From: Candidatus Micrarchaeota archaeon
Lineage (GTDB): Archaea > Micrarchaeota > Micrarchaeia > Micrarchaeales > CABMGC01
Direction of reading: 5' to 3'
Length of the DNA stretch: 64,000 bases
Assembly (NCBI GenBank): GCA_021792095.1
Contig: JAJYVH010000001.1
Span: 677,155-741,154 of the forward strand
The notes beneath the pieces are model-generated. The model searched no databases. It was not told the origin of the DNA and worked only from the letters and a program-made list of their open reading frames with translations. Numbering within the stretch: position 1 is the first letter of the stretch; the number at the start of each line of letters is the position of its first letter. This document shows positions 5,521 through 52,149 of the stretch, in pieces. Made by a program: the position numbers and the translations under genes.

Positions 5521-5592
5521 GCCCCAGTAACTCAGTGGCAGAGTGCCAGTTTCGTAAACTGGAAGTCGAGGGTTCAACCCCCTCCTGGGGCT
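5521..5592 (+). tRNA. tRNA-Thr (anticodon CGU)
   Basis: Hand-folded cloverleaf: acceptor GCCCCAG/CTGGGGC, D arm ACTC/GAGT, anticodon stem CCAGT/ACTGG with loop TTCGTAA, T arm GAGGG-TTCAACC-CCCTC, discriminator T. Confidence 0.85.
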
Positions 5593-5616
5593 AACCGGAA
5601 ATTGTTCACGTGTTAG

Positions 5617-6435
5617 TCATTTTATAATCTGTACGTAATCTTCCATGTCTTTTACAAATTTGGCTCTGGTTTCTGCAGACAGAGTCGAATAAGTATTAAA
5701 ATACCTAGAGCAATAGAACTTTTTCTTCGGCTCTGCCGCCTTCAGAAGTTCCACTTTATCACAAACATCCTTTCTCATCAATTCTATTTTCTGGTCTTCG
5801 ATTTTGAAGAAATTGATTTTGTCAGTTACTCTTATATCCACTTCCGTTTCTGGTGCGGAAAGTAAATTCCATACCTTATTTATAAATGCCTTTTTCTGTT
5901 CAGAAAGTACGGCGCCACGATATATTTTCAATGAAATTGCCTTTGCATAATTCTGCGCTACAGAGCCTTCTCTGTCAGTAAGTTTTGAAACCTGACTGGG
6001 TAGCCATACAAGATTCGGGACAAATGTGTTCGCAAGTGGATTGCGAGCGGAATGTTCGCCTCCATTAAATTTTCCCCATATGTGGCTTGCTACAAACCCC
6101 TTTGCCATTTTTTTATTATGATAGAAAGAATTTGGACCAACAACTCTGAACGTACGAGGTATCGCCTTTACGAGACTGTTGTCGTCTCTGAAATATCCGT
6201 TTTTGTCACAAGAACCCCATTCTTCGGTCTTTTTATTTACGGATTTCCTGCATGTCGGATCTCTTACTATAAATGGGCGCAGAACTGGCAAGCTTTGGTA
6301 TAACTCTACAGGAAGCCATATTGATAGGTTCAATATCAGCTTTTTTACAAGTTCTGTGTCTGGGTTTTGAGTTGTTATTGCTTCTTTAAAATAATGGTAT
6401 AATGCATCATCCCCATCTATTGTGCCGTATGCCAT
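5617..6435 (-). CDS. hypothetical protein, possible HNH_2-like nuclease; last gene of the island operon
   Basis: 272-aa ORF, 5 nt downstream of the PD-(D/E)XK gene. The segment GFVASHIWGKF...NPLANTFVPNLVWLPSQVSKLTD loosely fits the xHI...N..N.L.L....FD pattern of HNH_2 nucleases. There is no other recognisable motif. Confidence 0.35.
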   Translation of the reverse strand: MAYGTIDGDDALYHYFKEAITTQNPDTELVKKLILNLSIWLPVELYQSLPVLRPFIVRDPTCRKSVNKKTEEWGSCDKNGYFRDDNSLVKAIPRTFRVVGPNSFYHNKKMAKGFVASHIWGKFNGGEHSARNPLANTFVPNLVWLPSQVSKLTDREGSVAQNYAKAISLKIYRGAVLSEQKKAFINKVWNLLSAPETEVDIRVTDKINFFKIEDQKIELMRKDVCDKVELLKAAEPKKKFYCSRYFNTYSTLSAETRAKFVKDMEDYVQIIK

Positions 6436-6440
6436 GTGAT

Positions 6441-7463
6441 CTACTTCAAGATGTCGATGCCTGGTTTCCGAGACACAATCAGATTATCATGGCCGTCCAA
6501 GTTAATTTCGTAATGAACTACTTCTACACCAGAAGGAACACCTTCCTGAAACTTATCAGCAGTTATTCTGGGGAAAGCATCTTTGACTTCGTACAACGCC
6601 TCATCTACGATACGGAAACGAACCTTTTCATACTCTTCATCGTGCATTGGCGAATATCCCGTGAGAACTAATGTACTTTCAAACGATGCCAATGCATCTT
6701 GATTATTTGCAAGTGAACTACGGCACAATGCAATTAAGCTTGGAAGAGTATTTGTCGCACCACCTTCTTCTCTTAATCTAAGGCTGAAAAAATACAATTT
6801 GCCATTTTCCGGAGGTAAAAGCTGATCTATCCCATGTATCCAATGTACTCTCCCGGCGGTTGATGTGGTGCCTTTTACCTCAACTGATTTTCCTTGCCAT
6901 TCAAAGTCGTGTCTACTGCCTCTAGGTCCTCTCCAACCTACTATTACATCGCTTTGTTTCATATTAGGTAAAAGCCAACAGTTGAGGTACCACAGCTCTG
7001 AAAACAAGCCAATAATTTCTTCTTTCGATAGAATGTTGACAGGCGGTCTACCCCAAAAATACCGCCATTTTGCTAACACCGTACTGACAACTTCTACTTT
7101 CGAGATATTTCCAGAAGAAAGTGAGACGGCGATTTCACGGCCTATTATATCAAACGCTTCTTGGCCTGTTGGGTCTTGACAAATGATATCTATGTATTTT
7201 GATGGCGCTTGATCGTGCTCTTTGATTTTAAGTTCTTCACAAGAAACGCCTATACCGCGGCTTTGGCTATCACTCATGCCCTCTTCGTCTGATGAAAGAG
7301 GTATCAAAAAGTGGCGGGCTCCTTCCGCATCTATTCCAGCTAGCAAGACCGTAGATATTTCGGGAAAGGCCGTCCTGGCTACGAACGTTTCCTCCTTAAT
7401 CCTCGTATTTTTTAAGCGATCCCATATTTCAGTATTTAAGTGACTCATGTTACCGGCCTCCAT
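6441..7463 (-). CDS. PD-(D/E)XK motif protein (putative nuclease subunit)
   Basis: 340 aa. RGSRHDFEWQGKSVEVKGTTS gives the D...E-x-K catalytic signature. The gene overlaps the Z1 gene by 19 nt on the same strand. Confidence 0.6.
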   Translation of the reverse strand: MEAGNMSHLNTEIWDRLKNTRIKEETFVARTAFPEISTVLLAGIDAEGARHFLIPLSSDEEGMSDSQSRGIGVSCEELKIKEHDQAPSKYIDIICQDPTGQEAFDIIGREIAVSLSSGNISKVEVVSTVLAKWRYFWGRPPVNILSKEEIIGLFSELWYLNCWLLPNMKQSDVIVGWRGPRGSRHDFEWQGKSVEVKGTTSTAGRVHWIHGIDQLLPPENGKLYFFSLRLREEGGATNTLPSLIALCRSSLANNQDALASFESTLVLTGYSPMHDEEYEKVRFRIVDEALYEVKDAFPRITADKFQEGVPSGVEVVHYEINLDGHDNLIVSRKPGIDILK

Positions 7464-10060
7464 CCACTGGTTCCTACCAAGAAAGCTTGGACAGGTTGCG
7501 GTTGTTGTGATTTAGGAAACGATATTGCCAAAGCTATCAGGTCCCGCGAATCTTGAGCTGAGGGTTTTTCGAAGAGTGCAATACGGTCTGTTCCCTCTTT
7601 TTTAGGTTTAGAATTCTTACTTATAGGGTATATGAGAAGCAATCCTTCTGTTGCGGGTCGTTCTTGCCTTATTTGAGGCCAGTCTCTATCTGATGGGGCA
7701 GTGGCTTCTACCTTTTTGATTACGTCGTCTGGAAGTCCAAGCATCTGATCTTCAGGCGAAGTAGTTACGCCTACGGAAACACGATCATATTTTTTACGGG
7801 TACGCCTTATCTGCCATATGTGTCCTCCATCCACATTCCATTTGGCTTCTCCAAGTTCCTCATCAAGTTTGCTAAGACCGCGGACTGCTACGGTCCAACG
7901 CAGGAGTTCATTGACTCCCAATTGATGTTCAATGTACGATATTACTAGTGGCAATGAGCAGTCGCCAAAATCATCATGACGGATTTCCTTAAGAAATGTG
8001 ACAAGCTCCTTTGCGGGCACGTTTGACCATATAGGGCCGTTGTCGTCCCACTTTGGTTCTCCGGCAACCCCGAGGAATTTTTTAACTGCAATAAGATTAG
8101 AATCCGACTCCTCTGCTAAAATTGTGGGATTATCAAAAGGAAACTTAAACATTTGTACAAGCTGTCCGCTATAACTTTGTGTTATTTGCATTTCTTGTGC
8201 CGATCGTCTTTTCAGGGGGCTGGTAACTTGCATAGCAGGGTGCTGTAATATGCGCGTACCTACCTCATACGGCTTTATACCAGTATCCTCGTACTTTTGT
8301 ATGTCTTCACGTAAGCTATGTTCAACATAAGCGAGATCGCTAAACCATCCGGCAACTTCTGCTGTGATCCATATGCGTGTGAGATCCCCATAGCCCCTGC
8401 GAAAACCAAACCATCGGCCCATTTGCATCAGTGTATCATAAGTGGCGGTCCTTCTGACAAAGAAACTGGCGAGAAGGCCTTCTAAGGTAAGTCCACGTGA
8501 AAACTTGTTTCCTCCAATCGCTATAACTTTTAATCTGGGCTCATTTTCATAATCTAAGATATTGCCTGTTGCGCTGTTTATCGTGCGCACCTGTACAGCT
8601 TCAAAGAATGGGCCTATGAAGGATTCGATTTTGCTGAAACTAGTGTCAGTAAGCTCTGGATGTAAATTGTGGATAACTGGTTGAAAATCAGATTCCCACA
8701 GTTTTTGCAATCTTTTTCGTATACCTGCTCTGCGCTGATAACGCCATTCGTTCTTGAACTCTGAGAATTTTTGTTCTACAAGACTTTGCGCAGTAGTATG
8801 CGATGCGATCATCTGATCAATATGCACTAGCATCGTCGCGGGTTCGTCGCCTTCGCCTCTAGAAGCCCGCGCGGCTCCAGCTAAGACGAAACCCAAAATT
8901 GCCTTTTCCAAGGATTCAGTAACATTTCCGTTTTTAATGGCGTCTATGTCTGCATCGGGAACGATTCTGATTACGTCCAGTCCTTCAACTTGCGTTTCAG
9001 AAACCGGATCTGTGATACCAAAAAGTTCATCCGCACCAAAATAGTCTCGGGGTCTTGGCAAGTCCACTATGAAGTCTCTCGGGTACAGATCATTTCCCAC
9101 TTGCGGGTCATAAGTATCATGAGGGATGAGAACATTGGCAAAAGGCGTGGCGGTGTATGCTACATATGCCTTTTTCTGGAAGCTATTTAACAGATCTCTA
9201 ATAAGGCCATTTATGACACTGGGCGGCTCGTAATCTTCGGGAGGTGGACCATCTTCGGGTTGATAAGATCCACGGGTGTCTATACTTGCAAGATCTGCTT
9301 CATCATCAATTACCAAAACAGGAATTGCATTCAGTATCGCTGCGGGTGCGCCTGCAAGCCAATACAATAATTTGCGCAAAACCATTCCGTTTTTCTTGAC
9401 TACCATCAATACAGGAGTAGGTCCCTGAAGTGGGGCTTGATTTGCGTGTCCGGGGTTGAAATCTCCATCAACATCATTTGTCGTAACACAGAACCACTGT
9501 TTGCCCAGTGGTGGAAAAGGTACGGATTCGGGATCGTTCCCTGGCATTCCGACAAGTTGTTTCTGAAGACGTATCTGTGTCTGCAACCTGAGTCCTTTAT
9601 CAATTCCCGAAAGTACAATTATCAAACGATAGCCACAATCGACAGCCTTTGCGATTAACGCGGTAAAATTCGTTGTCTTTCCACTCTGGACATGACCAAG
9701 CACCAAGCCACGAATATCAAATTTTTGTGCATCCGGATCGGCAAGATGTCTAAGTATCTGATCTGTTGTGTCTTCGATTGACTTAAGCGCTGGTGCTGGC
9801 AGTATCCTAGAAAGCAGCATATTTCGTAAAGTAGGCCAGTAATACCACATAGAACGATCTTCGTGCTGAAGCCAATCGTTGTCATTATTAGCAGCAATCA
9901 CGTGCGCCCTCTCGAGTATTATGTTGTCGTCTCTTTCCAGTTCTGTTTTGATCGCATCGCGAAATTCAGGAGGTACCGCCGGATTTGCCAGTGCTTCTTC
10001 TCTACTTTGACCTGTAGTAGTCAGGTAACGAACTAAACCTAAGGCTTCTGCTTTATTCAT
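7445..10060 (-). CDS. Z1-domain P-loop NTPase (DEAD/Z1 helicase-like motor)
   Basis: 871 aa. Walker A is LGHVQSGKTTNFTALIAKAVDCGYRLIIVLSG...LRLQTQ, which is typical of Z1 proteins. Walker B/DEAD-like is VLVIDDEADLAS. Confidence 0.75.
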   Translation of the reverse strand: MNKAEALGLVRYLTTTGQSREEALANPAVPPEFRDAIKTELERDDNIILERAHVIAANNDNDWLQHEDRSMWYYWPTLRNMLLSRILPAPALKSIEDTTDQILRHLADPDAQKFDIRGLVLGHVQSGKTTNFTALIAKAVDCGYRLIIVLSGIDKGLRLQTQIRLQKQLVGMPGNDPESVPFPPLGKQWFCVTTNDVDGDFNPGHANQAPLQGPTPVLMVVKKNGMVLRKLLYWLAGAPAAILNAIPVLVIDDEADLASIDTRGSYQPEDGPPPEDYEPPSVINGLIRDLLNSFQKKAYVAYTATPFANVLIPHDTYDPQVGNDLYPRDFIVDLPRPRDYFGADELFGITDPVSETQVEGLDVIRIVPDADIDAIKNGNVTESLEKAILGFVLAGAARASRGEGDEPATMLVHIDQMIASHTTAQSLVEQKFSEFKNEWRYQRRAGIRKRLQKLWESDFQPVIHNLHPELTDTSFSKIESFIGPFFEAVQVRTINSATGNILDYENEPRLKVIAIGGNKFSRGLTLEGLLASFFVRRTATYDTLMQMGRWFGFRRGYGDLTRIWITAEVAGWFSDLAYVEHSLREDIQKYEDTGIKPYEVGTRILQHPAMQVTSPLKRRSAQEMQITQSYSGQLVQMFKFPFDNPTILAEESDSNLIAVKKFLGVAGEPKWDDNGPIWSNVPAKELVTFLKEIRHDDFGDCSLPLVISYIEHQLGVNELLRWTVAVRGLSKLDEELGEAKWNVDGGHIWQIRRTRKKYDRVSVGVTTSPEDQMLGLPDDVIKKVEATAPSDRDWPQIRQERPATEGLLLIYPISKNSKPKKEGTDRIALFEKPSAQDSRDLIALAISFPKSQQPQPVQAFLVGTSGWRPVT

Positions 10061-11384
10061 TTGTCATCCCAAATTTTTCTCTGATACGTTCGAAAATCTT
10101 GCGAAGCATTGGCTTCTGATAGGCTTTGGCCATCGCTAGAACTTCTTTCTCCAGTTCATCCAAGGTCCATGTCTGTTGAGCCGTATTAACAACGCTGGAA
10201 ACACGAGATTCGGATATAGGCATATCTTTCTTTGAGCTTCTCGAACTGGCATCCGAAGACCTAAAGCTCTTTCTTTCTTTTCTATCGTATCTTTCTCGTG
10301 CAATTTTCACAACTTCTTTAACCATGCTGTCGAAGTACTCTCTTTCAGAACTCGGCAATTGTACCTGCATCTTTGAGACATTAAGCTTAAATGCATCATC
10401 CAAGGTAGGTGAAAAACTCAGAGCAATTCGGGCTAGTTTAGTGTGTTCATCTTGGGTTCTGAGTTTGCACCATCCACCACTCTGGATCAGCCGGTTTGCC
10501 CTATAAATATAGAAACCTTGTTGTTGGTTCCAGCCGGTTGGTCCGCCAGCTTTATTGAATGCATCCATTGATGAAAATTCCTGCTGGGAAGGCAGTATGT
10601 ACGGTTCTGCTAGGATGTTTCCAGTTGCACCTTCGTATTCTATGGTCAATCGCCGGGGTTCGAGAGGGACGGTTTTCTCTTTTCTAACAAAGGGATCCCA
10701 AGGCTCAATTGGGTTTCCATTTAGCGAAATTTTCACTTTTTCTCTGCCCTGCACGTATCCAGAAAGGAAGCGATGAAATACCATTGCTAAATGCTCCTCC
10801 AGTTCACGATCCATATTTAGAATACGTGTGCTTGCAGCAACACTGTGCGAGTGTTTGTATTCCAAGAATCGATCTAGTTTCCACCAAAATACCACAGTCC
10901 CTGTGCTCTTGTTTTTAATGAGAGGCTCGAAAACAATTGTTTGCATTTTCTTGTCGGTAAGCTTCAATATTTCCCATTTATCTACATGTGCTATGTGATC
11001 CAGATCCCAACAGAACCCTTCGATTTTGTTCTTTGCGTCATTTCGGCTTGCAACAGCAACAAAGCTGCATTGACTTAGCGAAGCAGTTTTGAGCCCCAGC
11101 CCAAACTTGCCAAGTGCGTCTTCGCTATAGGCTCTTTCCGATCCAAATCGCATGGCTTCTACTAACTGGTCTTCGCTCATTCCTTTTCCGTTGTCTGCAA
11201 CCCTCACCCAAGAGTTACGGCCCCTGTATTCGACGTTTATATCTATCGATGTGGCTCCCCATTCGATTGAGTTATCAACTATGTCTGCAACTGCAGCGGA
11301 GAAGTCATAGCCAACGTCACGTAGAGATCTGATTAACCGTTTTGCACTCGGTATTAGTTCGATAGCTTCAACAGCGCTCTTCAA
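10053..11384 (-). CDS. GHKL-superfamily ATPase (HATPase_c_3; MutL/MORC-like)
   Basis: 443 aa. The Bergerat fold motifs are the N box AVADIVDNSIEWGA, the G1 box VADNGKGM and the G2 box GKFGLGLKTAS. Confidence 0.8.
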   Translation of the reverse strand: MKSAVEAIELIPSAKRLIRSLRDVGYDFSAAVADIVDNSIEWGATSIDINVEYRGRNSWVRVADNGKGMSEDQLVEAMRFGSERAYSEDALGKFGLGLKTASLSQCSFVAVASRNDAKNKIEGFCWDLDHIAHVDKWEILKLTDKKMQTIVFEPLIKNKSTGTVVFWWKLDRFLEYKHSHSVAASTRILNMDRELEEHLAMVFHRFLSGYVQGREKVKISLNGNPIEPWDPFVRKEKTVPLEPRRLTIEYEGATGNILAEPYILPSQQEFSSMDAFNKAGGPTGWNQQQGFYIYRANRLIQSGGWCKLRTQDEHTKLARIALSFSPTLDDAFKLNVSKMQVQLPSSEREYFDSMVKEVVKIARERYDRKERKSFRSSDASSRSSKKDMPISESRVSSVVNTAQQTWTLDELEKEVLAMAKAYQKPMLRKIFERIREKFGMTNE

Positions 11385-12310
11385 GATCTCTCACCATCAT
11401 AAAGTGCCTTCATCGCTTTTGCAGCAGCACGAGAAAAAACAGGACTAACCGAATCAGCCACCATTTGGTATCTTACGCCCAATCCTTCGCCCTTCGGGAA
11501 ACTGTATTTTCTGGGAAACCCCATTAATTGCAATGCTTCCTTGACTGATATTGCACGAGTTTCACCTCCGTTGAAAGAATCTGGATGCAATATGTATGTC
11601 TTCATAACGTTTCCGAAAGAGGGAGCCTGTTCGCGCCATTTCAATACGTACCATCCAAACTGACCTGTTTTATAATATTTCAAGTAGTTATGTATAGTTC
11701 TGAGTCTGGGCCATTCATGATCACTTTCGTCTCCAAAACCGCTGTTTCTTAGGTATCCTATGGCGTCCCTCACAGTCGCTTTATTCTTGGTTTTGTGTTT
11801 TGCAAGCAATTTGAAAAAGTCATGCGAATTGCCCGTACGAGTTCCAAAAACAATAAGTCGGCGTCTTCGTGTCGGTGCTCCAAAGTCTTTGTATGTTACA
11901 AACTCCTCTTCAATAGAGTAACCAAATTTTCCTGAGAGTCTTTTTAGATGTGAATTAAGAATCTTGTCGTTTGCTACAAGAGGAACGTTTTCGAAGAGAA
12001 AGAAAGCAGGTCTATTGATTTCTACGTGTTTGAAGAACCTTCCGACCAGACCATAATCGTGATGCTTCTCTCTTCTTCTAGTCACGTTCACTGCGGACCA
12101 CGGTTTGCACGGAGGCCCACCCATTATGACATCAAATCCATCCGCTATGATTTCCTTGGAAAGATCGGCTTGGATAAAACTTCCTAGCTTATTCAGTCTA
12201 AAGGAATCGGCTGCCTTGTCTGATATGTCTACTCCGGTAACTTTGAATCCCTCGTTGCTAAAACCCGAAGACAGACCTCCAGCACCACAAAATAAATCCA
12301 ATATTTTCAT
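11381..12310 (-). CDS. dcm: DNA (cytosine-5)-methyltransferase
   Basis: 309 aa with motif I ILDLFCGAGGLSSGF, motif IV GGPPCKPWS, motif VI FLFENVP, motif VIII-like APTRRRRLIVFG and motif X-like VADSVSP. Confidence 0.9.
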   Translation of the reverse strand: MKILDLFCGAGGLSSGFSNEGFKVTGVDISDKAADSFRLNKLGSFIQADLSKEIIADGFDVIMGGPPCKPWSAVNVTRRREKHHDYGLVGRFFKHVEINRPAFFLFENVPLVANDKILNSHLKRLSGKFGYSIEEEFVTYKDFGAPTRRRRLIVFGTRTGNSHDFFKLLAKHKTKNKATVRDAIGYLRNSGFGDESDHEWPRLRTIHNYLKYYKTGQFGWYVLKWREQAPSFGNVMKTYILHPDSFNGGETRAISVKEALQLMGFPRKYSFPKGEGLGVRYQMVADSVSPVFSRAAAKAMKALYDGERS

Positions 12311-12729
12311 TGTTCGATCACCATTAATTTTGTATTAAGATTCTTATACCACTGTCTGTTCTCTATCGGCATTGTTATTTGATGTTCCCATATTCTGATT
12401 ACAGTCCACCCTCTGCTCCTTAGTGTTCTATCGACTACTCGATCTCTGATTTTGTTCAATTTTGCCTTGTTTTCCCAGTATTTAGAGTTTGATTTGGGTT
12501 GGACGTAATGCTTAGGGCAGATATGCCAAAAACAACCGTCTATAAAAAGTGCAATTTTACTTACTCCGTTTGCAAAATCCGGATTTCCATATACGTCCTT
12601 CGGGTGGTATGCGAAATTAAGCTGCTTAAGCAGAGTTTCTACTTTGAGTTCTGGCTTGGTTTTGGAACTTCTTATTCTGGACATGTTGTAACTTCTCGTT
12701 GTCTTTGAATGAACGTCCAAGTTAAACAC
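12307..12729 (-). CDS. vsr: very short patch repair endonuclease
   Basis: 140 aa with SRIRSSKTKPEL, FIDGCFWHICPKH and RSRGWTVIRIWEHQI, which are characteristic Vsr blocks. It overlaps dcm by 4 nt. Confidence 0.85.
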   Translation of the reverse strand: MFNLDVHSKTTRSYNMSRIRSSKTKPELKVETLLKQLNFAYHPKDVYGNPDFANGVSKIALFIDGCFWHICPKHYVQPKSNSKYWENKAKLNKIRDRVVDRTLRSRGWTVIRIWEHQITMPIENRQWYKNLNTKLMVIEQ

Positions 12730-12868
12730 CAGATTTCCAAGCTGCCGCTAACCTCAAATCATCACCCAGAAGCAGATGGCTTCTTGTATAGCGTTGCCAA
12801 AACGCATTTTGCGTAATCATTATTTGGGCACTTAAAAATAAATGCTTTACTTTCATGCTCCCGCACAC

Positions 12869-13090
12869 CTACTTGGCCATGTTGCTCTTATAACTCTTGT
12901 CAAGCCACCACTGATTCTGCCTTCCAACCTTGCGAAACTTCACTTTACCTTGTATTTGCAGTTTAGTGAGTTGCAGTTCGGCAGTGTTCCAGCTTATTCC
13001 CACACCAGCAGCCACATCTTCTGTGGTGCTTGGCCACTCTTGGTTTTTGAGGTATTCCAAGATCCTATTTTGTATATCTTCTCCACGCAT
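12869..13090 (-). CDS. small winged-helix DNA-binding protein
   Basis: 73 aa. ILEYLKNQEWPSTTEDVAAGVGISWNTAELQLTKLQIQGKV resembles a wHTH (ArsR/MarR-like) core. Confidence 0.5.
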   Translation of the reverse strand: MRGEDIQNRILEYLKNQEWPSTTEDVAAGVGISWNTAELQLTKLQIQGKVKFRKVGRQNQWWLDKSYKSNMAK

Positions 13091-13247
13091 ACTATGACAT
13101 CCCCTTATGACATAACCTATGTTTAAACATATTTAAAACTTGTTTCATTCAGTATATACGAGTGTAATGGTCGATGTTTGGCTCTGTAGAATTCCTCTAC
13201 TTCGATAACGGCAGAAGGCCTTAAAACCTCCTGCCGATCTGTGTTAT

Positions 13248-14426
13248 TTGGCGACACAGATGAAAGAGAAAGGCGACTCTAGGTATAAGAGGTTTATCGA
13301 AACAGCGTTCAGGGAAGTAAGTAGAGTACTAAGGTCGTACTCTGACAGATTCTCAAAGAAGACATATACACAACGACAACTTGCAGTTGCAGTACTGTTA
13401 ATGAAATACGAGGACAAAACATACAGAGATATCACAGATTTGTTGGTTGAATTTGCGGATTATTTTGAGTTCAAGAACAGCACACCCCACTTCACTACCT
13501 TACAAAAGTTCTTCCTCAGAATACCGACATATGTTTGGGAATTCCTACTGACCAAGACGTATGAACTGTTTGCTGGAGATGTTGCAAATGTTGCAATAGA
13601 TTCCACGGGTTACAGACTGCACCACGCTTCGCAACACTATGAACAGAGGACCGGCAGAAAACGGAACCGTAGATGTTTCATGAAATATATTCTATCGATA
13701 GACTCTGACAGTCAGGCGATAATAGTTTCAGAAAGTAGAAGGTCTTGCATAAACGACAACATAACGTTTAGACCGATCCTGAAGAAGACAAAGGACATAG
13801 TTGATGTGGACAATACAACTGCTGACAAGGGATATGACTCAGAAGAAAATCACAGGTTTGCACATAAGAAGATTGGCGCAAACTCGGTCATACCATTACG
13901 ATATGAAATTCCACTACGGCGAACAACAGGGTTGTATCTGGAAAGTACATGCCCGGAGCACGGCAGATACGGAAGTGCCTTGACTGAAAGCACTCATGAC
14001 TTTGTAGACATCAATACTCCCCTAAGGAATGTCATAAAGGAGGCATTATTCATAGAAGAGGCCAAGGCAAAAAGGGCATTGGACCTGATGGTAGACGACG
14101 GGGACTGGGTTCACATGCCCGAATATGTCGTATCTGAAGGGCTGGCCCTTTTGGGTTACAGCTACAAAGACAGACCATCGCGCTTCTTTGCTCCAATCAT
14201 AGAAGATTGGTCAGGAGCAAAGTTCTCAAAGTCAGTTTATGTTGAAAAAGGGACTTATGGTTACTTACCGGCTGGGTTCCTGAACCTAGTTGAGTTCAAG
14301 AAAGAATATGGAAATGGTGGTGTTGACGCACTTTGGAAAGAAGTAAAAGACTGGATTTCTGATCCAAAGAAGATCTTCAGGAATTACAGTGCAGGATATC
14401 TCTTTTCTATCTTAAGAAAGAACTAA
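13248..14426 (+). mobile_element. truncated IS4/IS5-family DDE transposase fused in frame to unrelated sequence (chimeric ORF)
   Basis: The first ~230 aa carry DDE_Tnp_1-like blocks (VAIDSTGY; TTADKGYDSEENH). The third catalytic region (Y..R...E) is absent. After about nt 13941 the sequence changes character (CPEHG...SGAKFSKS...). Confidence 0.55.
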
Positions 14427-19439: not shown

Positions 19440-20924
19440 GGCCTGCATGCGCGCCGCATCGGCCAATTTCGTTATGCTCATACGTTTCAATATCAGTGAC
19501 ATCCTCCCACCCCTAAAGGGAGTGGGCTTCCTCCACATTTACATTTGTGGATGTTACTTGTGGAGTATGTTCTCGCTTCAGCGACCCGGCTTGCCCGTCC
19601 CTTGCGGAATGGGTGGAGGCCAGGTCTCCACGAGCGTGACTTCCGGCCTGCCCGGCCGTAGCTCTGTTGAGTATGTTTATAGCGGCGTTCACGTCCCTGT
19701 CTGCCACATAGCCGCAGGCGCAGGAGAACGTCCTGTCAGACAGCGACAGTGTGTTGAGCCTGCCGCACCGGCTGCATTCCTGCGACGTGTTCCTTGCGTC
19801 CACCGCTGTTACCGTCATGCCAGCCTCTTCCGCTTTGCATGATAGCGTGCTTATGAACCTGCCCCACGAGGCGCCCTGTATGGACCTCGCAAGCCTGTGG
19901 TTCTGAAGCATGTTCTGTATGTGCAGTCCCTCTACCGCGAACGAGGTATAGCCTGAGCCAATCAGGTCGTCTACTGCCTTGAAGACGAAGTCCTTGGCCC
20001 GGTTGTTGACCTGCTGCCATTTCCTTTCGAGTTGGCGTTTTGCCTTGTCTCTGCGATGAGAGCCCTTCTGCCTCCTGGCTGTAATCCTCTGCCACTTTGC
20101 GATGCGCCTCTCCGCCTTCCTTGCGAAGTCCGGCTTGGTTATCTTCCTGCCGTCAGAGAGGGCGGCGAAGGTCTCCAGGCCCATGTCGATGCCTACAGGA
20201 TTGGCGTCCCTGACCTTTTGCGGTTCAGTTCCGTTTACGGTTGAGAAGATTGCGTAGTATTGGCCTGCCTCCCTCTTTATCGTCAGTGTCTTGACGTTGC
20301 CCACGATTGGCCTGTGGAGCTCTATCCTCATGCCCCCTATCCTCGAGACGCGGAGCATATTGACGTCCTTCCTCTCCCTGTCCACGCTGAAGCCGAACTG
20401 GGGATAGGTTATCGAATTGTACCTGTCCTTTGCCCTGAAGCGGGGGAAGCCCGCCTTGACCCGCTTCCCTGCCCTCCTCTCCCTGACCCTGCGGAAGAAG
20501 TTCTGGTACGCCTTGATGAGGCGGAAGTACGCCTCCCTCTGGACCTGGGAGTAGAGCCCAGAGAGTTCCTTGTTCTCCGCCTTGGCCTCACGCAGGAAAC
20601 GGTTGAATGTTGAGGGTTTGATGGCAAGGCTCTTGGTTTTCCGGTATTCGTCCCTCGCCTTTTCGAGAAGTTTGTTGTAAAGAAGACGCGCTAGTTCTAC
20701 CTGCCCGTCCACCTCACTCTGGCGTTTTGCATCTGGATAGAGCCTGTATCGATAGGCTTTTGTAATGCCCACATAACCTACTGCGCCTTTCATATTATTA
20801 TCCTTTTTGTCGTTATATGCGGCCATTTCCATCTTCCTTTTCCGCCCTCGCTCCCATCCCACCGCTGAAGCATATGGGATTTCCCGCTCCGAAGAGTTAA
20901 ATACGTTACATAGCCACTAGTAGC
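19440..20924 (-). mobile_element. solo tnpB insertion element (IS1341-like, no tnpA)
   Basis: tnpB is flanked by subterminal hairpins at 20856-20880 (ATCCCA...TGGGAT) and 19506-19526 (CCCACTCCC-TTTA-GGGGTGGG, read on the minus strand). Both ends share a GGTGGGAnGG motif. The boundaries are approximate. Confidence 0.6.
19513..20793 (-). CDS. tnpB: TnpB (IS200/IS605-family OrfB; RuvC-type RNA-guided nuclease family)
   Basis: N-terminus YRYRLYPD. RuvC D/E/D residues are in VGIDMGLE, FAVEGL and DRDVNAAINI. The zinc finger is CSRCG...CACG. I prefer MKGAVGY (20793) as the start; the ORF track extends to 20862. Confidence 0.85.
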   Translation of the reverse strand: MKGAVGYVGITKAYRYRLYPDAKRQSEVDGQVELARLLYNKLLEKARDEYRKTKSLAIKPSTFNRFLREAKAENKELSGLYSQVQREAYFRLIKAYQNFFRRVRERRAGKRVKAGFPRFRAKDRYNSITYPQFGFSVDRERKDVNMLRVSRIGGMRIELHRPIVGNVKTLTIKREAGQYYAIFSTVNGTEPQKVRDANPVGIDMGLETFAALSDGRKITKPDFARKAERRIAKWQRITARRQKGSHRRDKAKRQLERKWQQVNNRAKDFVFKAVDDLIGSGYTSFAVEGLHIQNMLQNHRLARSIQGASWGRFISTLSCKAEEAGMTVTAVDARNTSQECSRCGRLNTLSLSDRTFSCACGYVADRDVNAAINILNRATAGQAGSHARGDLASTHSARDGQAGSLKREHTPQVTSTNVNVEEAHSL

Positions 20925-32718: not shown

Positions 32719-32833
32719 GTATATGCGCCTGGCTCCAGATATTACAATTATACCAGAATCTATGCTGTTCCTGTATCTTCGCCAGTTGCAGAACATATTT
32801 AAACTTAATCACAATAGCATAATTGGCGATCAG

Positions 32834-33871
32834 ATGACGGACTTTACCACAGAGATACTGGGTACCGGAGGGCAGAACGCTGTTTCTGAAATAAAGATAG
32901 TGACTATCGGAGTGGGCGGAGGCGGAAACAACACCGTCAACCGTTTGCTGAAGGTTGGAGTGAAGGGCACGGAGCTCGTGGCTGTCAACACGGACGCTAA
33001 CCACTTCAAGATAATAGACGACAGGATAAAGAAGATGCTCATAGGCAAGACAATAACCAGGGGCCTTGGCGCGGGCGGCGATCCGAGCATAGGCATGAAG
33101 GCGGCGGAGGTGGACAGGCAGGCGCTCGAGGAGATGCTGAGCGGCGCGCACCTTGTGTTCCTTTGCGCCGGAATGGGCGGCGGCACAGGCACCGGGGCCG
33201 CGCCAGTGATAGCGCAGATAGCCAAGGAGGCCGGAGCTATAGTCGTGGCCATGGTCACATACCCGTTCGACCTGGAGCGCGTCAGGAAGGTTAAGGCGGA
33301 GGAGGGCATCCAGCAGCTGCGCAAGCATTGCGACAGCGTGGTTATAATAGACAACAACAGGCTCGTGAAGCTAGTGCCCAACCTGCCGATGAACGAGGCG
33401 TTCGCGGTTGCGGACGACGTGCTAGCTAAGGCGATAGGGGGCCTGGTGTGGACGATAACGCAGCCCAGCCTTATCAACATCGACTTCGCTGACGTGAAGG
33501 CGATAATGGGAAGCGGCGACATAGGCTTCATATCTGTGGGCACGGGCAAGGGCACGGACAAGGTGACCAGCGCCAGCGAAGCTGTGATAAAGAACAAGCT
33601 GCTGGACGTGAGCTTCGAGAACGCCAAGGGCGCTCTCATACACATCTCGGGCGCATCGGACCTTACCCTGGGAGACGCGATAAAGGCAGGAGACATAATA
33701 ACGGAGCAGATGGACCCCAAGGCCACTGTGAAGTGGGGCGCAAGGATAGTGCCTGGCTTCGAGGGCCAGCTCGAGATAGTCGCGATAGTCACAGGCGTCA
33801 AGGGCGAGAGCATACTGGGAAGGTTCGCGGAGAAGAAAGAAGCCAGCTACTCAGGCCTGGACGCCATATGA
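32834..33871 (+). CDS. ftsZ: cell division GTPase FtsZ (paralog 1)
   Basis: GVGGGGNNTVNRL and the tubulin signature GMGGGTGTGAAPV. The start is taken at ATG 32834 (MTDFTTE). Confidence 0.9.
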   Translation: MTDFTTEILGTGGQNAVSEIKIVTIGVGGGGNNTVNRLLKVGVKGTELVAVNTDANHFKIIDDRIKKMLIGKTITRGLGAGGDPSIGMKAAEVDRQALEEMLSGAHLVFLCAGMGGGTGTGAAPVIAQIAKEAGAIVVAMVTYPFDLERVRKVKAEEGIQQLRKHCDSVVIIDNNRLVKLVPNLPMNEAFAVADDVLAKAIGGLVWTITQPSLINIDFADVKAIMGSGDIGFISVGTGKGTDKVTSASEAVIKNKLLDVSFENAKGALIHISGASDLTLGDAIKAGDIITEQMDPKATVKWGARIVPGFEGQLEIVAIVTGVKGESILGRFAEKKEASYSGLDAI

Positions 33872-33878
33872 TGCTAGG

Positions 33879-34904
33879 GTGTTATGGGTGGCAGACGAGT
33901 TCGACTACGACGCATTCACGCCAAAAGTTGCAGTAGCAGGGGTCGGCGGGGCCGGGAGCAACCTTGTGAACAGGCTCTTCAGCAACAACATAAAGAGCGC
34001 CACCACTATAGCGGTGAACACTGACCTTGCGCACCTCAACATGATCAAGGCGCACAGGAAGGTGCTCATAGGCAGGGAGCTCACCAACGGCCTCGGAGCC
34101 GGAGGATTCCCCGAAGTGGCGGCGAAGTGCGCAGACATGAGCAAGGGAGACATAGAGAAGGTGCTCGAGGGCTACAACCTGGTGTTCGTAGTGGCCGGAA
34201 TGGGCGGCGGCACCGGCACCGGGGCCGCGCCAGTGGTCGCAAGGGCGGCCAGGGAGCTGGGCGCCACAGTCATAGCCACAGTAACGTACCCGTTCGCGCT
34301 GGAGAGGAGCAGGAAGCAGAAGGCGGAGTGGGGCATAGAGCAGCTGAGCAAGGAGGCAGACGCTGTGATAGTGGTCGAGAACGAGAAGCTGCTCGAGTAC
34401 GTGCCGAACCTGCCGATGGAGAAGGCGTTCGAGCTCTCGGACAACATAACCGGCAACGCTGTCAAGGGCATAGCCGACACCATAATGCTGCCGAGCCTCA
34501 TCAACCTGGACTTCGCGGATCTCAGGACAGTGGTCAGGGAGACCGGCACGGCCGTGATCAGCATAGGCACGGGCACGGGCACAGACAGGGTGGCGCAGGC
34601 TATAAAGAGCACACGCACGCACCCGCTGCTCACAGTGGATTACGAGGGCGCGAAGGGCGCGCTCATACACGTGTCCGGCGGCAGCGACCTCACCATAGAG
34701 GAGGCCACAAGGATAGGCGAGGGCGTGACCGAGGAGCTCGCTGCGGATGCTAACGTGATATTCGGGGCCAGGCTCATACCTGAGCTTCGCGACCAAGTAA
34801 GGGTCATGTCCATAGTGACTGGAGTGAAGGCGAAGTTCGGAGTGAAGAAGAAGCTTGAGGAGACTGAGCGCCTGGGGATGGAGGCACTGGAGCAGATACT
34901 GTAG
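33879..34904 (+). CDS. ftsZ: cell division GTPase FtsZ (paralog 2)
   Basis: GVGGAGSNLVNRL and GMGGGTGTGAAPV. The GTG start lies 7 nt after the paralog 1 stop. Confidence 0.9.
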   Translation: MLWVADEFDYDAFTPKVAVAGVGGAGSNLVNRLFSNNIKSATTIAVNTDLAHLNMIKAHRKVLIGRELTNGLGAGGFPEVAAKCADMSKGDIEKVLEGYNLVFVVAGMGGGTGTGAAPVVARAARELGATVIATVTYPFALERSRKQKAEWGIEQLSKEADAVIVVENEKLLEYVPNLPMEKAFELSDNITGNAVKGIADTIMLPSLINLDFADLRTVVRETGTAVISIGTGTGTDRVAQAIKSTRTHPLLTVDYEGAKGALIHVSGGSDLTIEEATRIGEGVTEELAADANVIFGARLIPELRDQVRVMSIVTGVKAKFGVKKKLEETERLGMEALEQIL

Positions 34905-37376: not shown

Positions 37377-37763
37377 CTACTGCTTCGCCATCCCGGCCTT
37401 CTTCCTCTTTATTATCTTCACTTTGGCCGGAGTTATGAGCACCCGCGTGTCGTCTATCTGCGCTATGTCGCCGTTTATCTTCGCGACGTAGTCCTTCAGC
37501 GCAGTGAGCACGTTGTTCCTTGTGTTGGGCCTCTTCGCGAGCTCCTCTATGCTGAGCAGCAGTATGTTCTTCTTGCCAAGCTCATCCTCTATGAACTTAA
37601 CTTCGTCCTCGCTCGATATTGTCACGGGCTTCACATACATGTCCGCTGGCTCGTGCATCATGTCGACGTCGTCCATCTCGGCGCTGTTCATGTACTCCTC
37701 AATGTTCATCTCCTTTGAGGAGGTAACACCAAATGCTTGTCCTAGCTTGTCAAAAACTCCCAT
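37377..37763 (-). CDS. sepF: cell division protein SepF
   Basis: MGVFDKL..., then KPVTISSEDEVKFIEDELGKKNILLLSIEEL...NGDIAQIDDTRVLITPAKV is the SepF/DUF552 core. Confidence 0.75.
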   Translation of the reverse strand: MGVFDKLGQAFGVTSSKEMNIEEYMNSAEMDDVDMMHEPADMYVKPVTISSEDEVKFIEDELGKKNILLLSIEELAKRPNTRNNVLTALKDYVAKINGDIAQIDDTRVLITPAKVKIIKRKKAGMAKQ

Positions 37764-37944
37764 GGTTTTCACCGGTCGCAACCATATATGTTATGCATCA
37801 GCTTTTTAATCTTTTCTTTGCGGCGACAATAGTGGCGGGCACGTGGACAAAGGGGTTTGACATCAATTTTATGCGCTGCGAGCGCTGGTTGCGTTGCAAA
37901 GAAAGAAGCCGCAGGCATGTCTTTCTCGAGACAGCAGCCATGGA

Positions 37945-41127: not shown

Positions 41128-41236
41128 ACTGCATGCACTACGAGTTATGTTGCCAATGCAACCTTTTTATTACGGGTGTGTGAAGAGAAGAGCAGAGCAG
41201 AACCAATTTTAAACCTTGAACACAGGGTATATGCGT

Positions 41237-46899: not shown

Positions 46900-47982
46900 C
46901 TAAACATTGTGTGGCACATAGATGTTTTTGCTCGAATTCACGAAGATTGTGTAGGTCGAGCCCACGAAGCCGGTCTGGTTGGTGCCGTTGAGCCACACCA
47001 ACACAGTGTATTCGCCTGCGCCGTACTTGTCTATCAGGCCCTTCATGCTGAAGGCTATGCCCAGCCTGCCACCGCTTGCGGAGTACTGGTCCGCCAGTAT
47101 AGTGTCTATGCCCGGATAGTAGTAGCCTTGGCTGCCTACGACCCCTGCGACTGTTGTCCCGTAGCCGTACGACGACGTGTTGTCAAGCTGGACCCTCGAC
47201 ATGCCCTGCACCGGCGCATCGTACGATATCTGCACCGATGATAGGGAGTAGGGCTGCGCGAGCGTGCCGTAGAGCAGCATCTCATCGCTGCTCTGGTTTA
47301 TGCCATACTTGCTCCACGCTATGTAGTTGTCTATGAAGTCCTCAACAAAGTAGACGGTGCTCGAGTTGTAGGCTATGCCTATGCTCACCTGGTTGTGGTA
47401 CTGATTTAGTATGTTGTCCCTGTGCCCGTTGTTGCAGCACTGGCTGTCATTGTACATCATGCTGTACTCCATCTCCTGCAGCGCCTGTGTGACGTTTATG
47501 TCTCCGCTGCAGCCGAAGACGCCGCACTCCGCACTGTACCTGTAGGCTATGTTCTCGCTGACAGCACCGGTGCCGCCAAGTAGGGTGTAACGCATGTAGG
47601 GCTTCATGCCGAAGACATCCCAGTGGCTGAAGTAGTTGTTGGCGAGCATGCTCGACGCGTGCTGTTGCGCCGACGGTTCGCTCGAGACGGTGACGTTCGC
47701 CAGGCCGTAGGCATTCCTGTCCCTGTTTATAAGGCTCAGCGCATAGGCCGCTAGCTGCGCGTTCGCCTGTGTGGCATTTGCCGTGCCCGTATTGCTGACC
47801 ACACTCTCGTTGCCTATCTGCGACGCATTCGCGCTCGTGTAGTTGGAGACAATGCCTACTATCGGACCCGCCCTGTCCATGTACCCGAAGAAGAGGAACG
47901 ATACCAGGAGCAGGACCGCGATTAGAGTGATCACGCTTGCTACAGCACCTGTTGCACCCATGCTGCTGATTGGACAGCGCAT
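46900..47982 (-). CDS. secreted CAP/SCP (PR-1-like) domain protein
   Basis: N-terminal TM/signal sequence. LINRDRNAYGL...HASSMLANNYFSHWD...GAVSENIA is the CAP core. The protein is sequon-rich. Confidence 0.7.
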   Translation of the reverse strand: MRCPISSMGATGAVASVITLIAVLLLVSFLFFGYMDRAGPIVGIVSNYTSANASQIGNESVVSNTGTANATQANAQLAAYALSLINRDRNAYGLANVTVSSEPSAQQHASSMLANNYFSHWDVFGMKPYMRYTLLGGTGAVSENIAYRYSAECGVFGCSGDINVTQALQEMEYSMMYNDSQCCNNGHRDNILNQYHNQVSIGIAYNSSTVYFVEDFIDNYIAWSKYGINQSSDEMLLYGTLAQPYSLSSVQISYDAPVQGMSRVQLDNTSSYGYGTTVAGVVGSQGYYYPGIDTILADQYSASGGRLGIAFSMKGLIDKYGAGEYTVLVWLNGTNQTGFVGSTYTIFVNSSKNIYVPHNV

Positions 47983-48019: not shown

Positions 48020-48261
48020 GAAGCGGCGTGCCGTAGCCTCCCTTCTGTTTTAGGTGGCATTCGACTAAGCGGCTTTATGCCTTGCACGCTCCTCGTGCGC
48101 ACACCGGCCGTTCCATGCATACGTGCACGCTCGTAATGTCATCGCTTGTGTACATGTATGCTCGCGTTTCTGTTCCGGATCGGGCCTTAAGCCCAACACG
48201 CACTCTGCGTGGGGAGAGCTTCCTCAGTCATATCGACCGTGGGCCACCCGCACACCGCTTC
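48020..48261 (-). ncRNA. rnpB: RNase P RNA, compact form (about 242 nt)
   Basis: P1 is 5'-GAAGCGGUGUGC (48250-48261) with GCACGCCGCUUC-3' (48020-48031). P2 is GGUGGC (48243-48248) with GCCACC (48053-58). CR-I is GAGGAAGCUCUCCCC (48211-25). J2/4 plus CR-V is ACAGAAGGGAGGCU (48035-48). P4 is AGC(U)CUCCC/GGGAGGCU with the bulged U. There are CR-II/III-like AACAGAAAC..GAGCA and GCAAGGCAUAAAG. TTATATAT lies about 26 nt upstream. Confidence 0.7.
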
Positions 48262-48302
48262 ATATGATATACTTTTCGCCCATATATAAGGCTAGTGGTA
48301 CG

Positions 48303-48578
48303 ATGGCAATAACTGGCGCGGAGCTCTCCGGCATCTGGCTGATAGTGGCGATAGTGATAGTGATACTCATAGTGTGGAAGCTGGGCAAACTCATATTCAA
48401 GCTGATCTTCGGCCTGATAAGCAACATAATAATGGGCTTCATCACGCTCCTGGCCGTGAACTATTTCTTCGGCCTCTCCATACCGTACAGCCTGCCCGTC
48501 ATAGCATCTACTGTGTTCTTCGGGCTCGGGGGCATAGGGACAATAATAATACTCAAGCTCTTCGGAGTGCCCGTCTGA
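48303..48578 (+). CDS. small BofA-like membrane protein
   Basis: 91 aa from ATG 48303. Three hydrophobic helices (WLIVAIVIVILIV, IIMGFITLLAVNYFFG, VFFGLGGIGTIIIL) resemble the BofA family. Confidence 0.5.
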   Translation: MAITGAELSGIWLIVAIVIVILIVWKLGKLIFKLIFGLISNIIMGFITLLAVNYFFGLSIPYSLPVIASTVFFGLGGIGTIIILKLFGVPV

Positions 48579-51618: not shown

Positions 51619-52149
51619 TCAGCTTGCTTCTGCAGCCGGAGCTTCCGCCTGAGCCTCTGGTGCAGCCTGCTTCTGCTCCTGCTCCTGCTTCGGCGCCTTT
51701 TCCTTCTTCTGCTTCGGCTTGGCCTCCTTCGGCGCCTGCTCCTGCTTCGGCGCCTCCTGCTTCGCCTCCTGCCTCGCAGCCCCGCCCTGCTTCGTTGCGG
51801 CCCAGCCTGTTATCTCCTTGACCTGCGCCTGCGCATCGCCCGGCTTCTCTATGGCTATGGCCGCGCACGGAACCCCGAGCCCGGCAGCCTTGCCCAGGTC
51901 AAGCTTGGCAGGCACGAAGATGAAAGGCTTCCTCTTCTGCTCGCAGAGCGTCGGCAGGTGCATCACCACCTCCTCGGGCTCCACGTCGCCTGCTATCAGC
52001 ACGAGCTCGGCGGTGCCCCGCTCTATGCTCTTGGTGACCTCGTTGACTCCCTTCTTCACTTTGCCCCCCTGCTTCGCAAGACGCACAGCGTCGAGCGACT
52101 TGTCCACTATCTCCTTTGGCGCTTCGAATTTCACATAGCTCTTTGCCAT
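51619..52149 (-). CDS. rpl7ae: ribosomal protein L7Ae with long K/Q/E/A/P-rich C-terminal tail
   Basis: The core is [13 protein letters not shown]...[36 protein letters not shown]. The tail is ...[51 protein letters not shown]. Start taken at MAKSYV. Confidence 0.85.

Follow-up and report, generated by a model that had tools for sequence, protein, structure and literature searches.

An RNase P RNA gene with a reduced, type-M-like periphery in a Micrarchaeota archaeon

The RNase P RNA gene and its setting

The window analyzed here, a 64-kb stretch of contig JAJYVH010000001.1 from a mine-drainage Candidatus Micrarchaeota archaeon (DPANN), contained a gap of exactly 320 bp between a CAP-domain gene (46900-47982, minus strand, start at 47982) and a BofA-like gene (plus strand, ATG at 48303), and the minus strand of this gap carried an RNase P RNA (RPR) gene of about 242 nt at 48020-48261 (RNA position 1 corresponding to window position 48261). 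RNase P is the universal enzyme that removes the 5′ leaders of pre-tRNAs, and the gene of its RNA subunit is universal and essential. With high confidence, the locus encodes the catalytic RNA subunit of this enzyme in a Micrarchaeota archaeon, as a single-copy gene under its own TATA-box promoter.

The whole window was scanned against Rfam 15 at gathering thresholds. Positions 48022-48259 (minus strand, 238 nt) matched RF00373 (archaeal RNase P; gathering score, 84) at 104.6 bits with an E value of 3.5e-28, and the match spanned model positions 1-288 of 288 without truncation, establishing homology over the full model; it was the sole RNase P match within the window, and the remaining Rfam matches were two tRNA-Thr genes only. 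The folding z-score of the RNA was −3.5. Motif set, RF00373 score, and folding z-score were together far beyond chance. The original prediction, drawn from inspection of the letters, had placed an RNase P RNA on the minus strand of this gap and proposed a cmsearch run as its check; the significant match bore it out, and the motifs that it quoted were all found in place on that strand.

Relatives and covariation-supported fold

Relatives were collected by a pattern scan (GCAAG, short P15, and conserved regions [CRs] IV and V) of one genome per GTDB species, which gave at least 119 loci. At least 28 other Micrarchaeota species carried the RNA at 72-97.5% identity, and the closest relatives among the matches listed were all Candidatus Micrarchaeota metagenome-assembled genomes (MAGs): (i) MAG L008, the closest of those listed, had an RNA 97.5% identical over 242 nt with 83% identity in the flanking 3 kb; (ii) the next closest of those listed, L022, had an RNA 93.4% identical with flanks of 77-82%; and (iii) at least 26 further Micrarchaeota species gave near-full-length alignments at 72-85% identity with mostly unrelated flanks. 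The RNA has thus been kept by purifying selection, and exact copies of the sequence were present in metagenomes from mine drainage, mine tailings, and sediment. The short-P15 pattern also picked up Methanobrevibacter (280 nt) and Haloarcula (481 nt); Methanobrevibacter was rejected as a short-P15 RNA, its Rfam alignment showing a full P15-17 and the pattern match being a chance one on the 3′ strand of P15-17.

The window RNA and 28 homologs (29 sequences) were aligned with MAFFT, unfitted to any structure, and a helix map drawn up from the window RNA and its Rfam alignment was tested on these sequences, with 3′ partners slid by 1-3 columns and 500 shuffles as controls. Under the revised helix map, 92.6% of the alignment cells paired versus 30-45% in the slid controls, both sides had changed in 42 of the 68 pairs versus 8-15 in the slid controls, and the observed pairing and covariation values were matched by 0 of the 500 shuffles. 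The first-pass map had paired 91.4% of the cells but P7 at only 65%; its P7 register 62-66/164-168, which came from the Rfam alignment, was dropped for 59-64/162-167 (93% paired). A local hairpin 51-55/61-65, present in the single-sequence minimum free energy (MFE) fold, was likewise rejected (69% paired, one covarying pair), because covariation favored the long-range P5 (99%) together with P7. De novo folding of the alignment with RNAalifold recovered P1, inner P4, P5, the revised P7, P9, P11, P12, and P15. The core helices P1, P2, P3, P5, P7, P9, P10/11, and P12 were kept by compensatory change, each being 82-100% paired.

The catalytic-domain helices P1, P2, and P4, on whose compensatory changes the original prediction had made itself depend, were all supported. 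P1 was formed by the 5′ strand GAAGCGGUGUGC (48250-48261) and the 3′ strand GCACGCCGCUUC (48020-48031; all elements of the RNA are on the minus strand), with 12 bp including one G-U, as foreseen, and with 89% of its cells paired; its inner nine pairs were kept in 26-29 of the 29 sequences (positions 4-11 in all 29), six of them changing on both sides, while its outer three pairs were supported only in the window and the two closest relatives among the matches listed and varied in the others, so that the ends of the RNA are uncertain by about 3 nt. P2 paired GGUGGC (48243-48248) with GCCACC (48053-48058) in 98% of cells, and three of its six pairs changed on both sides (G-C/A-U and U-A/C-G); it had been predicted as a helix and as the pseudoknot partner, and the helix stood, but P2 is an ordinary nested helix and the pseudoknot is P4. 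P3 was a hairpin of 5 bp with a 5-nt loop (48225-48239; 97% paired, four of five pairs changing on both sides), reduced to CC-GAAA-GG in one subclade. P5 joined CACGC (48207-48211) to GCGUG (48085-48089) with 99% pairing and two covarying pairs.

Within the specificity domain, P7 joined GUGCGU (48198-48203) to GCGCAC (48095-48100), with 93% pairing and five of six pairs changing on both sides; P9 was a single hairpin with a YUAAG loop (48181-48195), 82% paired, whose inner four pairs were kept in 27-29 of the 29 sequences; P10/11 consisted of four contiguous base pairs between CCGG (48175-48178) and the 3′ strand CCGG (48104-48107), 100% paired with three of the four covarying; and P12 (48117-48161, 45 nt; 82% paired) had two covarying stems and a conserved tip, with 9 of its 11 stem pairs changing on both sides. 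The P15 pairing (100%) was invariant and therefore uninformative as covariation evidence.

Conserved regions and the P4 pseudoknot

CR-I to CR-V were all present in canonical order and were invariant or near-invariant across the 29 sequences. CR-I, composed of J3/4 and the P4 5′ strand, read GAGGAAGCUCUCCCC (48211-48225, with a bulged U at 48217), and its segment GAGGAAGCUC was invariant; CR-V, composed of J2/4 and the P4 3′ strand, read ACAGAAGGGAGGCU (48035-48048) with the core ACAGAAGG..GGCU. The resulting P4, AGC(U)CUCCC with GGGAGGCU, had 8 bp and was paired in 100% of cells, and its bulged U45 (48217) was unpaired and invariant throughout; two of its pairs covaried in the alignment (U-A/U-G/C-G and C-G/U-A), and three pairs were compensatory relative to the Rfam consensus (A-U to G-C, G-C to C-G, and C-G to U-A). 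CR-II (J11/12), ACAGAAACG at 48165-48173, equaled the Rfam consensus and was near-invariant; CR-III (J12/13), AUGGAACGG at 48108-48116, aligned to the consensus aUGAAACGg; and the near-invariant CR-IV, GCUUAGUCGAAU at 48059-48070, agreed with the consensus GCuuAGucGAAU. P3, CR-I, CR-II, CR-V, and P4 with its bulged U had all been named in the original prediction and were recovered as conserved elements; its CR-III was misplaced, the segment GCAAGGCAUAAAGCC being J5/15 plus the P15 hairpin.

In the proposed mechanism, P1-P2-P3 and the P4 pseudoknot (CR-I and CR-V, with CR-IV) would form the Mg2+-dependent active site that removes pre-tRNA 5′ leaders, and the specificity domain (P7, P9, P10/11, CR-II, CR-III, and P12) would read the tRNA elbow; CR-II and CR-III, the elbow-reading module, were intact.

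Promoter and transcription

A TATA box, TTATATAT, lay at 48282-48289 on the minus strand, −28 to −21 from RNA position 1. Positions −26 to −22 were A/T in 27 of the 27 homologs with upstream sequence versus a background of about 55%, the flanks being otherwise unrelated, and the 8-nt TATA-like box of the homologs usually began at −29 to −26; the upstream box that had been proposed by eye is thus a positionally conserved promoter element. Judging by its position, transcription begins either right at the mature 5′ end or no more than a few nucleotides away, and promoter melting probably takes place in the A/T-rich stretch from −8 to −1 (48262-48269). The RNA gene and its BofA-like neighbor are transcribed divergently and are separated by only 41 bp (48262-48303). 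On the opposite strand, the RNase P TATA box (48282-48289) precedes the BofA-like ATG by 14-21 nt, so that the A/T-rich promoter elements of the two genes must interleave.

In metatranscriptomes of peat and of mine drainage (the latter at a depth of about 62), contigs matched conserved segments within 48028-48233 only, the same contigs held nothing from the genes flanking the RNase P locus, and their unmatched parts continued as Micrarchaeota-type P1-P3 sequence; Micrarchaeota-type RNase P RNAs are transcribed.

A reading without any RNA gene, in which the region belongs to the 5′ portion of an extended BofA-like open reading frame (ORF; 48123-48578, plus strand, 151 aa) or else is a structured untranslated region or non-coding element, drew on the GTG-initiated plus-strand ORF that spans the region and on the stable MFE fold, which alone would fit any structured RNA. 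This reading is effectively refuted: the BofA domain lay wholly inside the 91-aa version starting from the ATG at 48303, the substitutions were paired and compensatory in the manner of an RNA, the match to the RNase P model was full length, and most homologs had other neighbor genes, yet the RNA and its TATA box persisted.

P12 tip, protein partners, and copy number

The 17-nt tip of P12 was nearly invariant, and the stems around it covaried. This tip carried a motif resembling a kink-turn (K-turn) or K-loop, GC/GAU/GA C-AUUA-C GA/GC (48129-48145, minus strand), in which G117, C118, U121, G122, A123, C129, G130, A131, G132, and C133 were invariant in 29 of 29 sequences. It fitted the K-turn consensus of a 2-bp G-C stem (C-stem), a 3-nt bulge ending in U, and tandem G-A/A-G, with G-A on one strand, G-A abutting the stem on the other, and a closing loop of 4-5 nt as in a K-loop; neither a second tandem G-A motif nor a distal hairpin was evident in P12 in the 29-sequence alignment. 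Judged from this motif, the tip is a candidate L7Ae site, and L7Ae is probably bound there.

Archaeal RNase P has L7Ae as a known fifth subunit, which functions in trans. A ribosomal protein L7Ae gene was located 3.4 kb from the RNase P RNA gene, at 51619-52149 on the minus strand (TIGR03677 equivalog, 150 bits; cutoff, 134.6); its ORF extended to 52233, with a probable start Met at 52149. The encoded protein had an atypical K/E/Q/A-rich C-terminal tail of about 55 residues beyond the usual domain of about 120 aa.

The RNA alone is expected to be inactive, because P8, the CCA-binding loop L15, P16/P17, and P6 are absent, and activity would require its assembly into a ribonucleoprotein with POP5-RPP30, RPP21-RPP29, and L7Ae. 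Protein-only RNase P (HARP) is reported to be absent from all DPANN genomes examined (PMC6380272), and therefore ribonucleoprotein RNase P is expected to be essential in this organism.

Five points weigh against the assignment of the locus as the single-copy RNase P RNA gene of this organism: (i) the RF00373 score was modest, 104.6 bits versus 145-205 bits for euryarchaeal RNAs, as a result of the absent peripheral elements; (ii) the genome was seen over 64 kb only, and a second RNase P RNA copy may lie elsewhere; (iii) Pfam/NCBIfam scans of the 68 window ORFs detected no POP5, RPP30, RPP21, or RPP29, an absence that is expected for 64 kb, so that the holoenzyme composition given above is a predicted one; (iv) no conserved oligo-T terminator was found 3′ of the gene when the flanks of the homologs were compared; and (v) the transcript contigs derived from relatives, not from this organism or locus. 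The first two are also what would speak for a decaying or redundant copy, with another genomic locus supplying either the functional RNase P RNA or a protein-only enzyme, since only 64 kb were inspected and the Rfam score was just 20 bits over the gathering threshold. Such a copy is very improbable: the five conserved regions and the P4 bulged U were intact, the RNA was much more conserved than its flanks, compensatory changes kept every helix across 29 species, the promoter was conserved, and the surveyed DPANN genomes lacked HARP (PMC6380272).

As the working RNase P RNA gene, the locus has an ordinary housekeeping role and adds one sequence to the known family RF00373; any Rfam-based annotation would recover 48020-48261, and the main consequence of finding it is that the annotation of a DPANN genome is completed.

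Other features of the window

Outside the RNase P gene, the window is ordinary archaeal chromosome: profile scans identified Suf genes and genes for DNA ligase, two FtsZ, SepF, aIF5A, EF-2, S7, S12, L30e, L7Ae, SMC, ThiI, and a histone. The two FtsZ paralogues were in tandem at 32723-34904 (plus strand), with the SepF gene nearby at 37377-37781 (minus strand). A low-GC block (42-48% versus about 58%) began directly after tRNA-Thr(CGU) (5521-5592), covering 5593-14426 and reaching to about 18 kb; it carried genes for DUF4420 (PD-(D/E)XK), Z1-domain, and HATPase_c_3 proteins, a C-5 cytosine methylase, and a Vsr endonuclease, with the gene for a DDE transposase coming next, and it has the appearance of a Dcm/Vsr-linked restriction or defence island that entered beside a tRNA gene. 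A gene at 19513-20862 (minus strand) encoded an OrfB/TnpB protein of the IS605 type whose TNB domain is Cas12f1-like.

In the upstream region of tRNA-Thr(UGU) (41176-41236), the only TATA-like element was ATTTTAAA at 41206-41213. Its distance of about 24-31 nt to the first nucleotide of the mature tRNA leaves room, by eye, for a leader just a few nucleotides long; by the same kind of inspection, the leader of tRNA-Thr(CGU) may measure about 8 nt.

Reduced periphery and comparison with known RNase P RNA classes

Peripheral elements were lost from both domains of the window RNA. P8 was deleted in the Rfam alignment, a single hairpin (48181-48195) lying between P7 and P10, and thus P7, P9, and P10 form a three-way junction; P15/L15/P16/P17 was replaced by a minimal P15 hairpin with an invariant stem, GGC-AUAAA-GCC (48071-48081, minus strand); and P12 was shortened relative to the Rfam model. 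The specificity domain measured 109 nt versus 127 nt in the Rfam consensus and the catalytic domain 133 nt versus 161 nt, the larger loss in the latter being due to the collapse of the P15-P17/P6 region from 39 model positions to 5 nt. The original prediction had attributed the small size to a reduced specificity domain; that domain is indeed reduced, but it is not the main cause. The compactness claimed there likewise held against type A (consensus, 288 positions; Methanobrevibacter, 280 nt) but not against type M and DPANN RNAs, where 242 nt is an unremarkable length (236-263 nt and 210-258 nt, respectively).

Archaeal RNase P RNAs have been described as classes A, M (Methanococcus), and T (PMC13462272); no description of the RNA type of Micrarchaeota or other DPANN was found in the searchable literature, and a 'smaller' RPR has been reported for the nanoarchaeon Nst1 (PMC4919917). 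With type A (Pyrococcus furiosus, Methanothermobacter, and Methanobrevibacter L005, 280 nt), the window RNA shared the core, the conserved regions, the P1-P5/P7/P9-P12 framework, and the Rfam family, but it lacked four features that type A possesses, namely P8, an internal loop in P15, P16/P17 bearing a K-turn, and P6. With type T (Thermoproteaceae, Pyrobaculum; about 200 nt), it shared the character of a minimized, protein-dependent archaeal RNA, but in type T almost nothing remains of the specificity domain and CR-II is gone (PMC13462272), whereas the window RNA kept CR-II, CR-III, P9, P10/11, and P12.

Other DPANN RNAs, from Iainarchaeum (L018, 231 nt), Aenigmatarchaeota (L021, 236 nt), and two Micrarchaeia (L104:1273-1486, minus strand, 214 nt, 93 bits; and L065:2766-2975, plus strand, 210 nt, 90 bits), resembled the window RNA in their short P15, absence of P8, and Rfam scores of 90-108 bits. 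L104 and L065, which had neither P8 nor P15-17, were nearly without P12 (reduced from 45 to 2 and from 37 to 6 model positions, respectively), whereas the window RNA kept a 45-nt P12 with a conserved tip. In one more Micrarchaeia MAG, a full-length RNase P RNA (L051:4994-5234, plus strand) scored 73 bits, under the gathering score of 84, and would therefore be overlooked by routine Rfam-based annotation; the tRNA match adjoining it (5279-5437) was 159 nt long, which suggests an intron. Scores of 90, 93, and 73 bits put related Micrarchaeia RNAs near or under the gathering threshold, and routine annotation is likely to miss some of them; the alignment provides a comparative data set on how far a protein-reliant RNase P RNA can be trimmed.

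By definition, type M has no P8, no P16, no P6 pseudoknot, and no substrate-recognition loop in P15 (PMC4919922), and besides lacking P8 it has an elongated, uninterrupted P10/P11 (PMC1874661); its P12 double K-turn binds two L7Ae copies (PMC5499556), and its described range is limited to Methanococcales/Methanococci and Archaeoglobales (PMC4919922, PMC13462272). Like the type M RNAs of Methanocaldococcus jannaschii, Methanococcus maripaludis, and Archaeoglobus fulgidus, which also belong to RF00373, the window RNA had no P8, L15, P16/P17, or P6 and a short-hairpin P15, retained CR-I to CR-V and the P4 bulged U, was of similar length (242 nt versus 236-263 nt), and had a K-turn-type motif in P12, with L7Ae encoded in the genome and tRNA genes without encoded CCA; both window tRNA-Thr genes lacked an encoded 3′ CCA, which is consistent with the loss of the L15 CCA-binding loop (PMC4919922). 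Unlike type M, it had (i) a contiguous P10/11 of 4 bp, where Methanocaldococcus L091 has 9 bp and Archaeoglobaceae L027 has 8 bp, (ii) a shorter, 45-nt P12 that apparently ends in a single K-loop-like motif, where type M has a double K-turn and then a distal hairpin, (iii) a YUAAG instead of a GNRA L9 loop, and (iv) a host in Micrarchaeota (DPANN) rather than in Methanococcales or Archaeoglobales. The periphery of this RNA is type-M-like, not fully type M.

The P8/P15-17 deletions were common to the window RNA and the classical type M lineages (Methanocaldococcus L091, 263 nt; Archaeoglobaceae L027, 236 nt), and such identical losses (P8, L15/P16/P17, and P6), along with the similar size, are what a true type M by descent would show, of common origin with the Methanococcales/Archaeoglobales RNAs and not independently reduced from type A. 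Common descent is unlikely given the 4 bp in place of the long uninterrupted P10/11, the single K-loop-like motif of a P12 without the distal hairpin of Methanocaldococcus, the DPANN host, and the existence of intermediates: Ferroglobus (L092:5179-5423, 245 nt), ANME-1/Methanophagales (L049:3299-3574, 276 nt), and Methanolliviera (L003:6190-6453, 264 nt), which keep P8 with a short P15, and another Micrarchaeota RNA (L047, 258 nt), which keeps P8. These differences and intermediates suggest repeated independent losses. The first three, in retaining P8 and P9 with a type-M-like P15, also blur the type A/M dichotomy in their own right.

Independent reduction could have given the RNase P RNAs of Micrarchaeota and several other DPANN a structural class of their own, a proposal offered tentatively and held just short of the balance of probability; such a class would combine the type M losses (P8, L15, P16/P17, and P6) with a short P10/11, a non-GNRA L9, and a single-K-loop P12, and further-reduced forms of 210-214 nt with P12 nearly lost occurred within the same class Micrarchaeia. 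If the proposal is true, the A/M/T scheme is incomplete, and RNA substrate-recognition elements have been shed repeatedly in small-genome archaea, with proteins presumably compensating. Compared with the known type M RNAs, the modest wider point is that the type M losses occurred in at least 29 Micrarchaeota RNAs, a different lineage, without the long P10/11.

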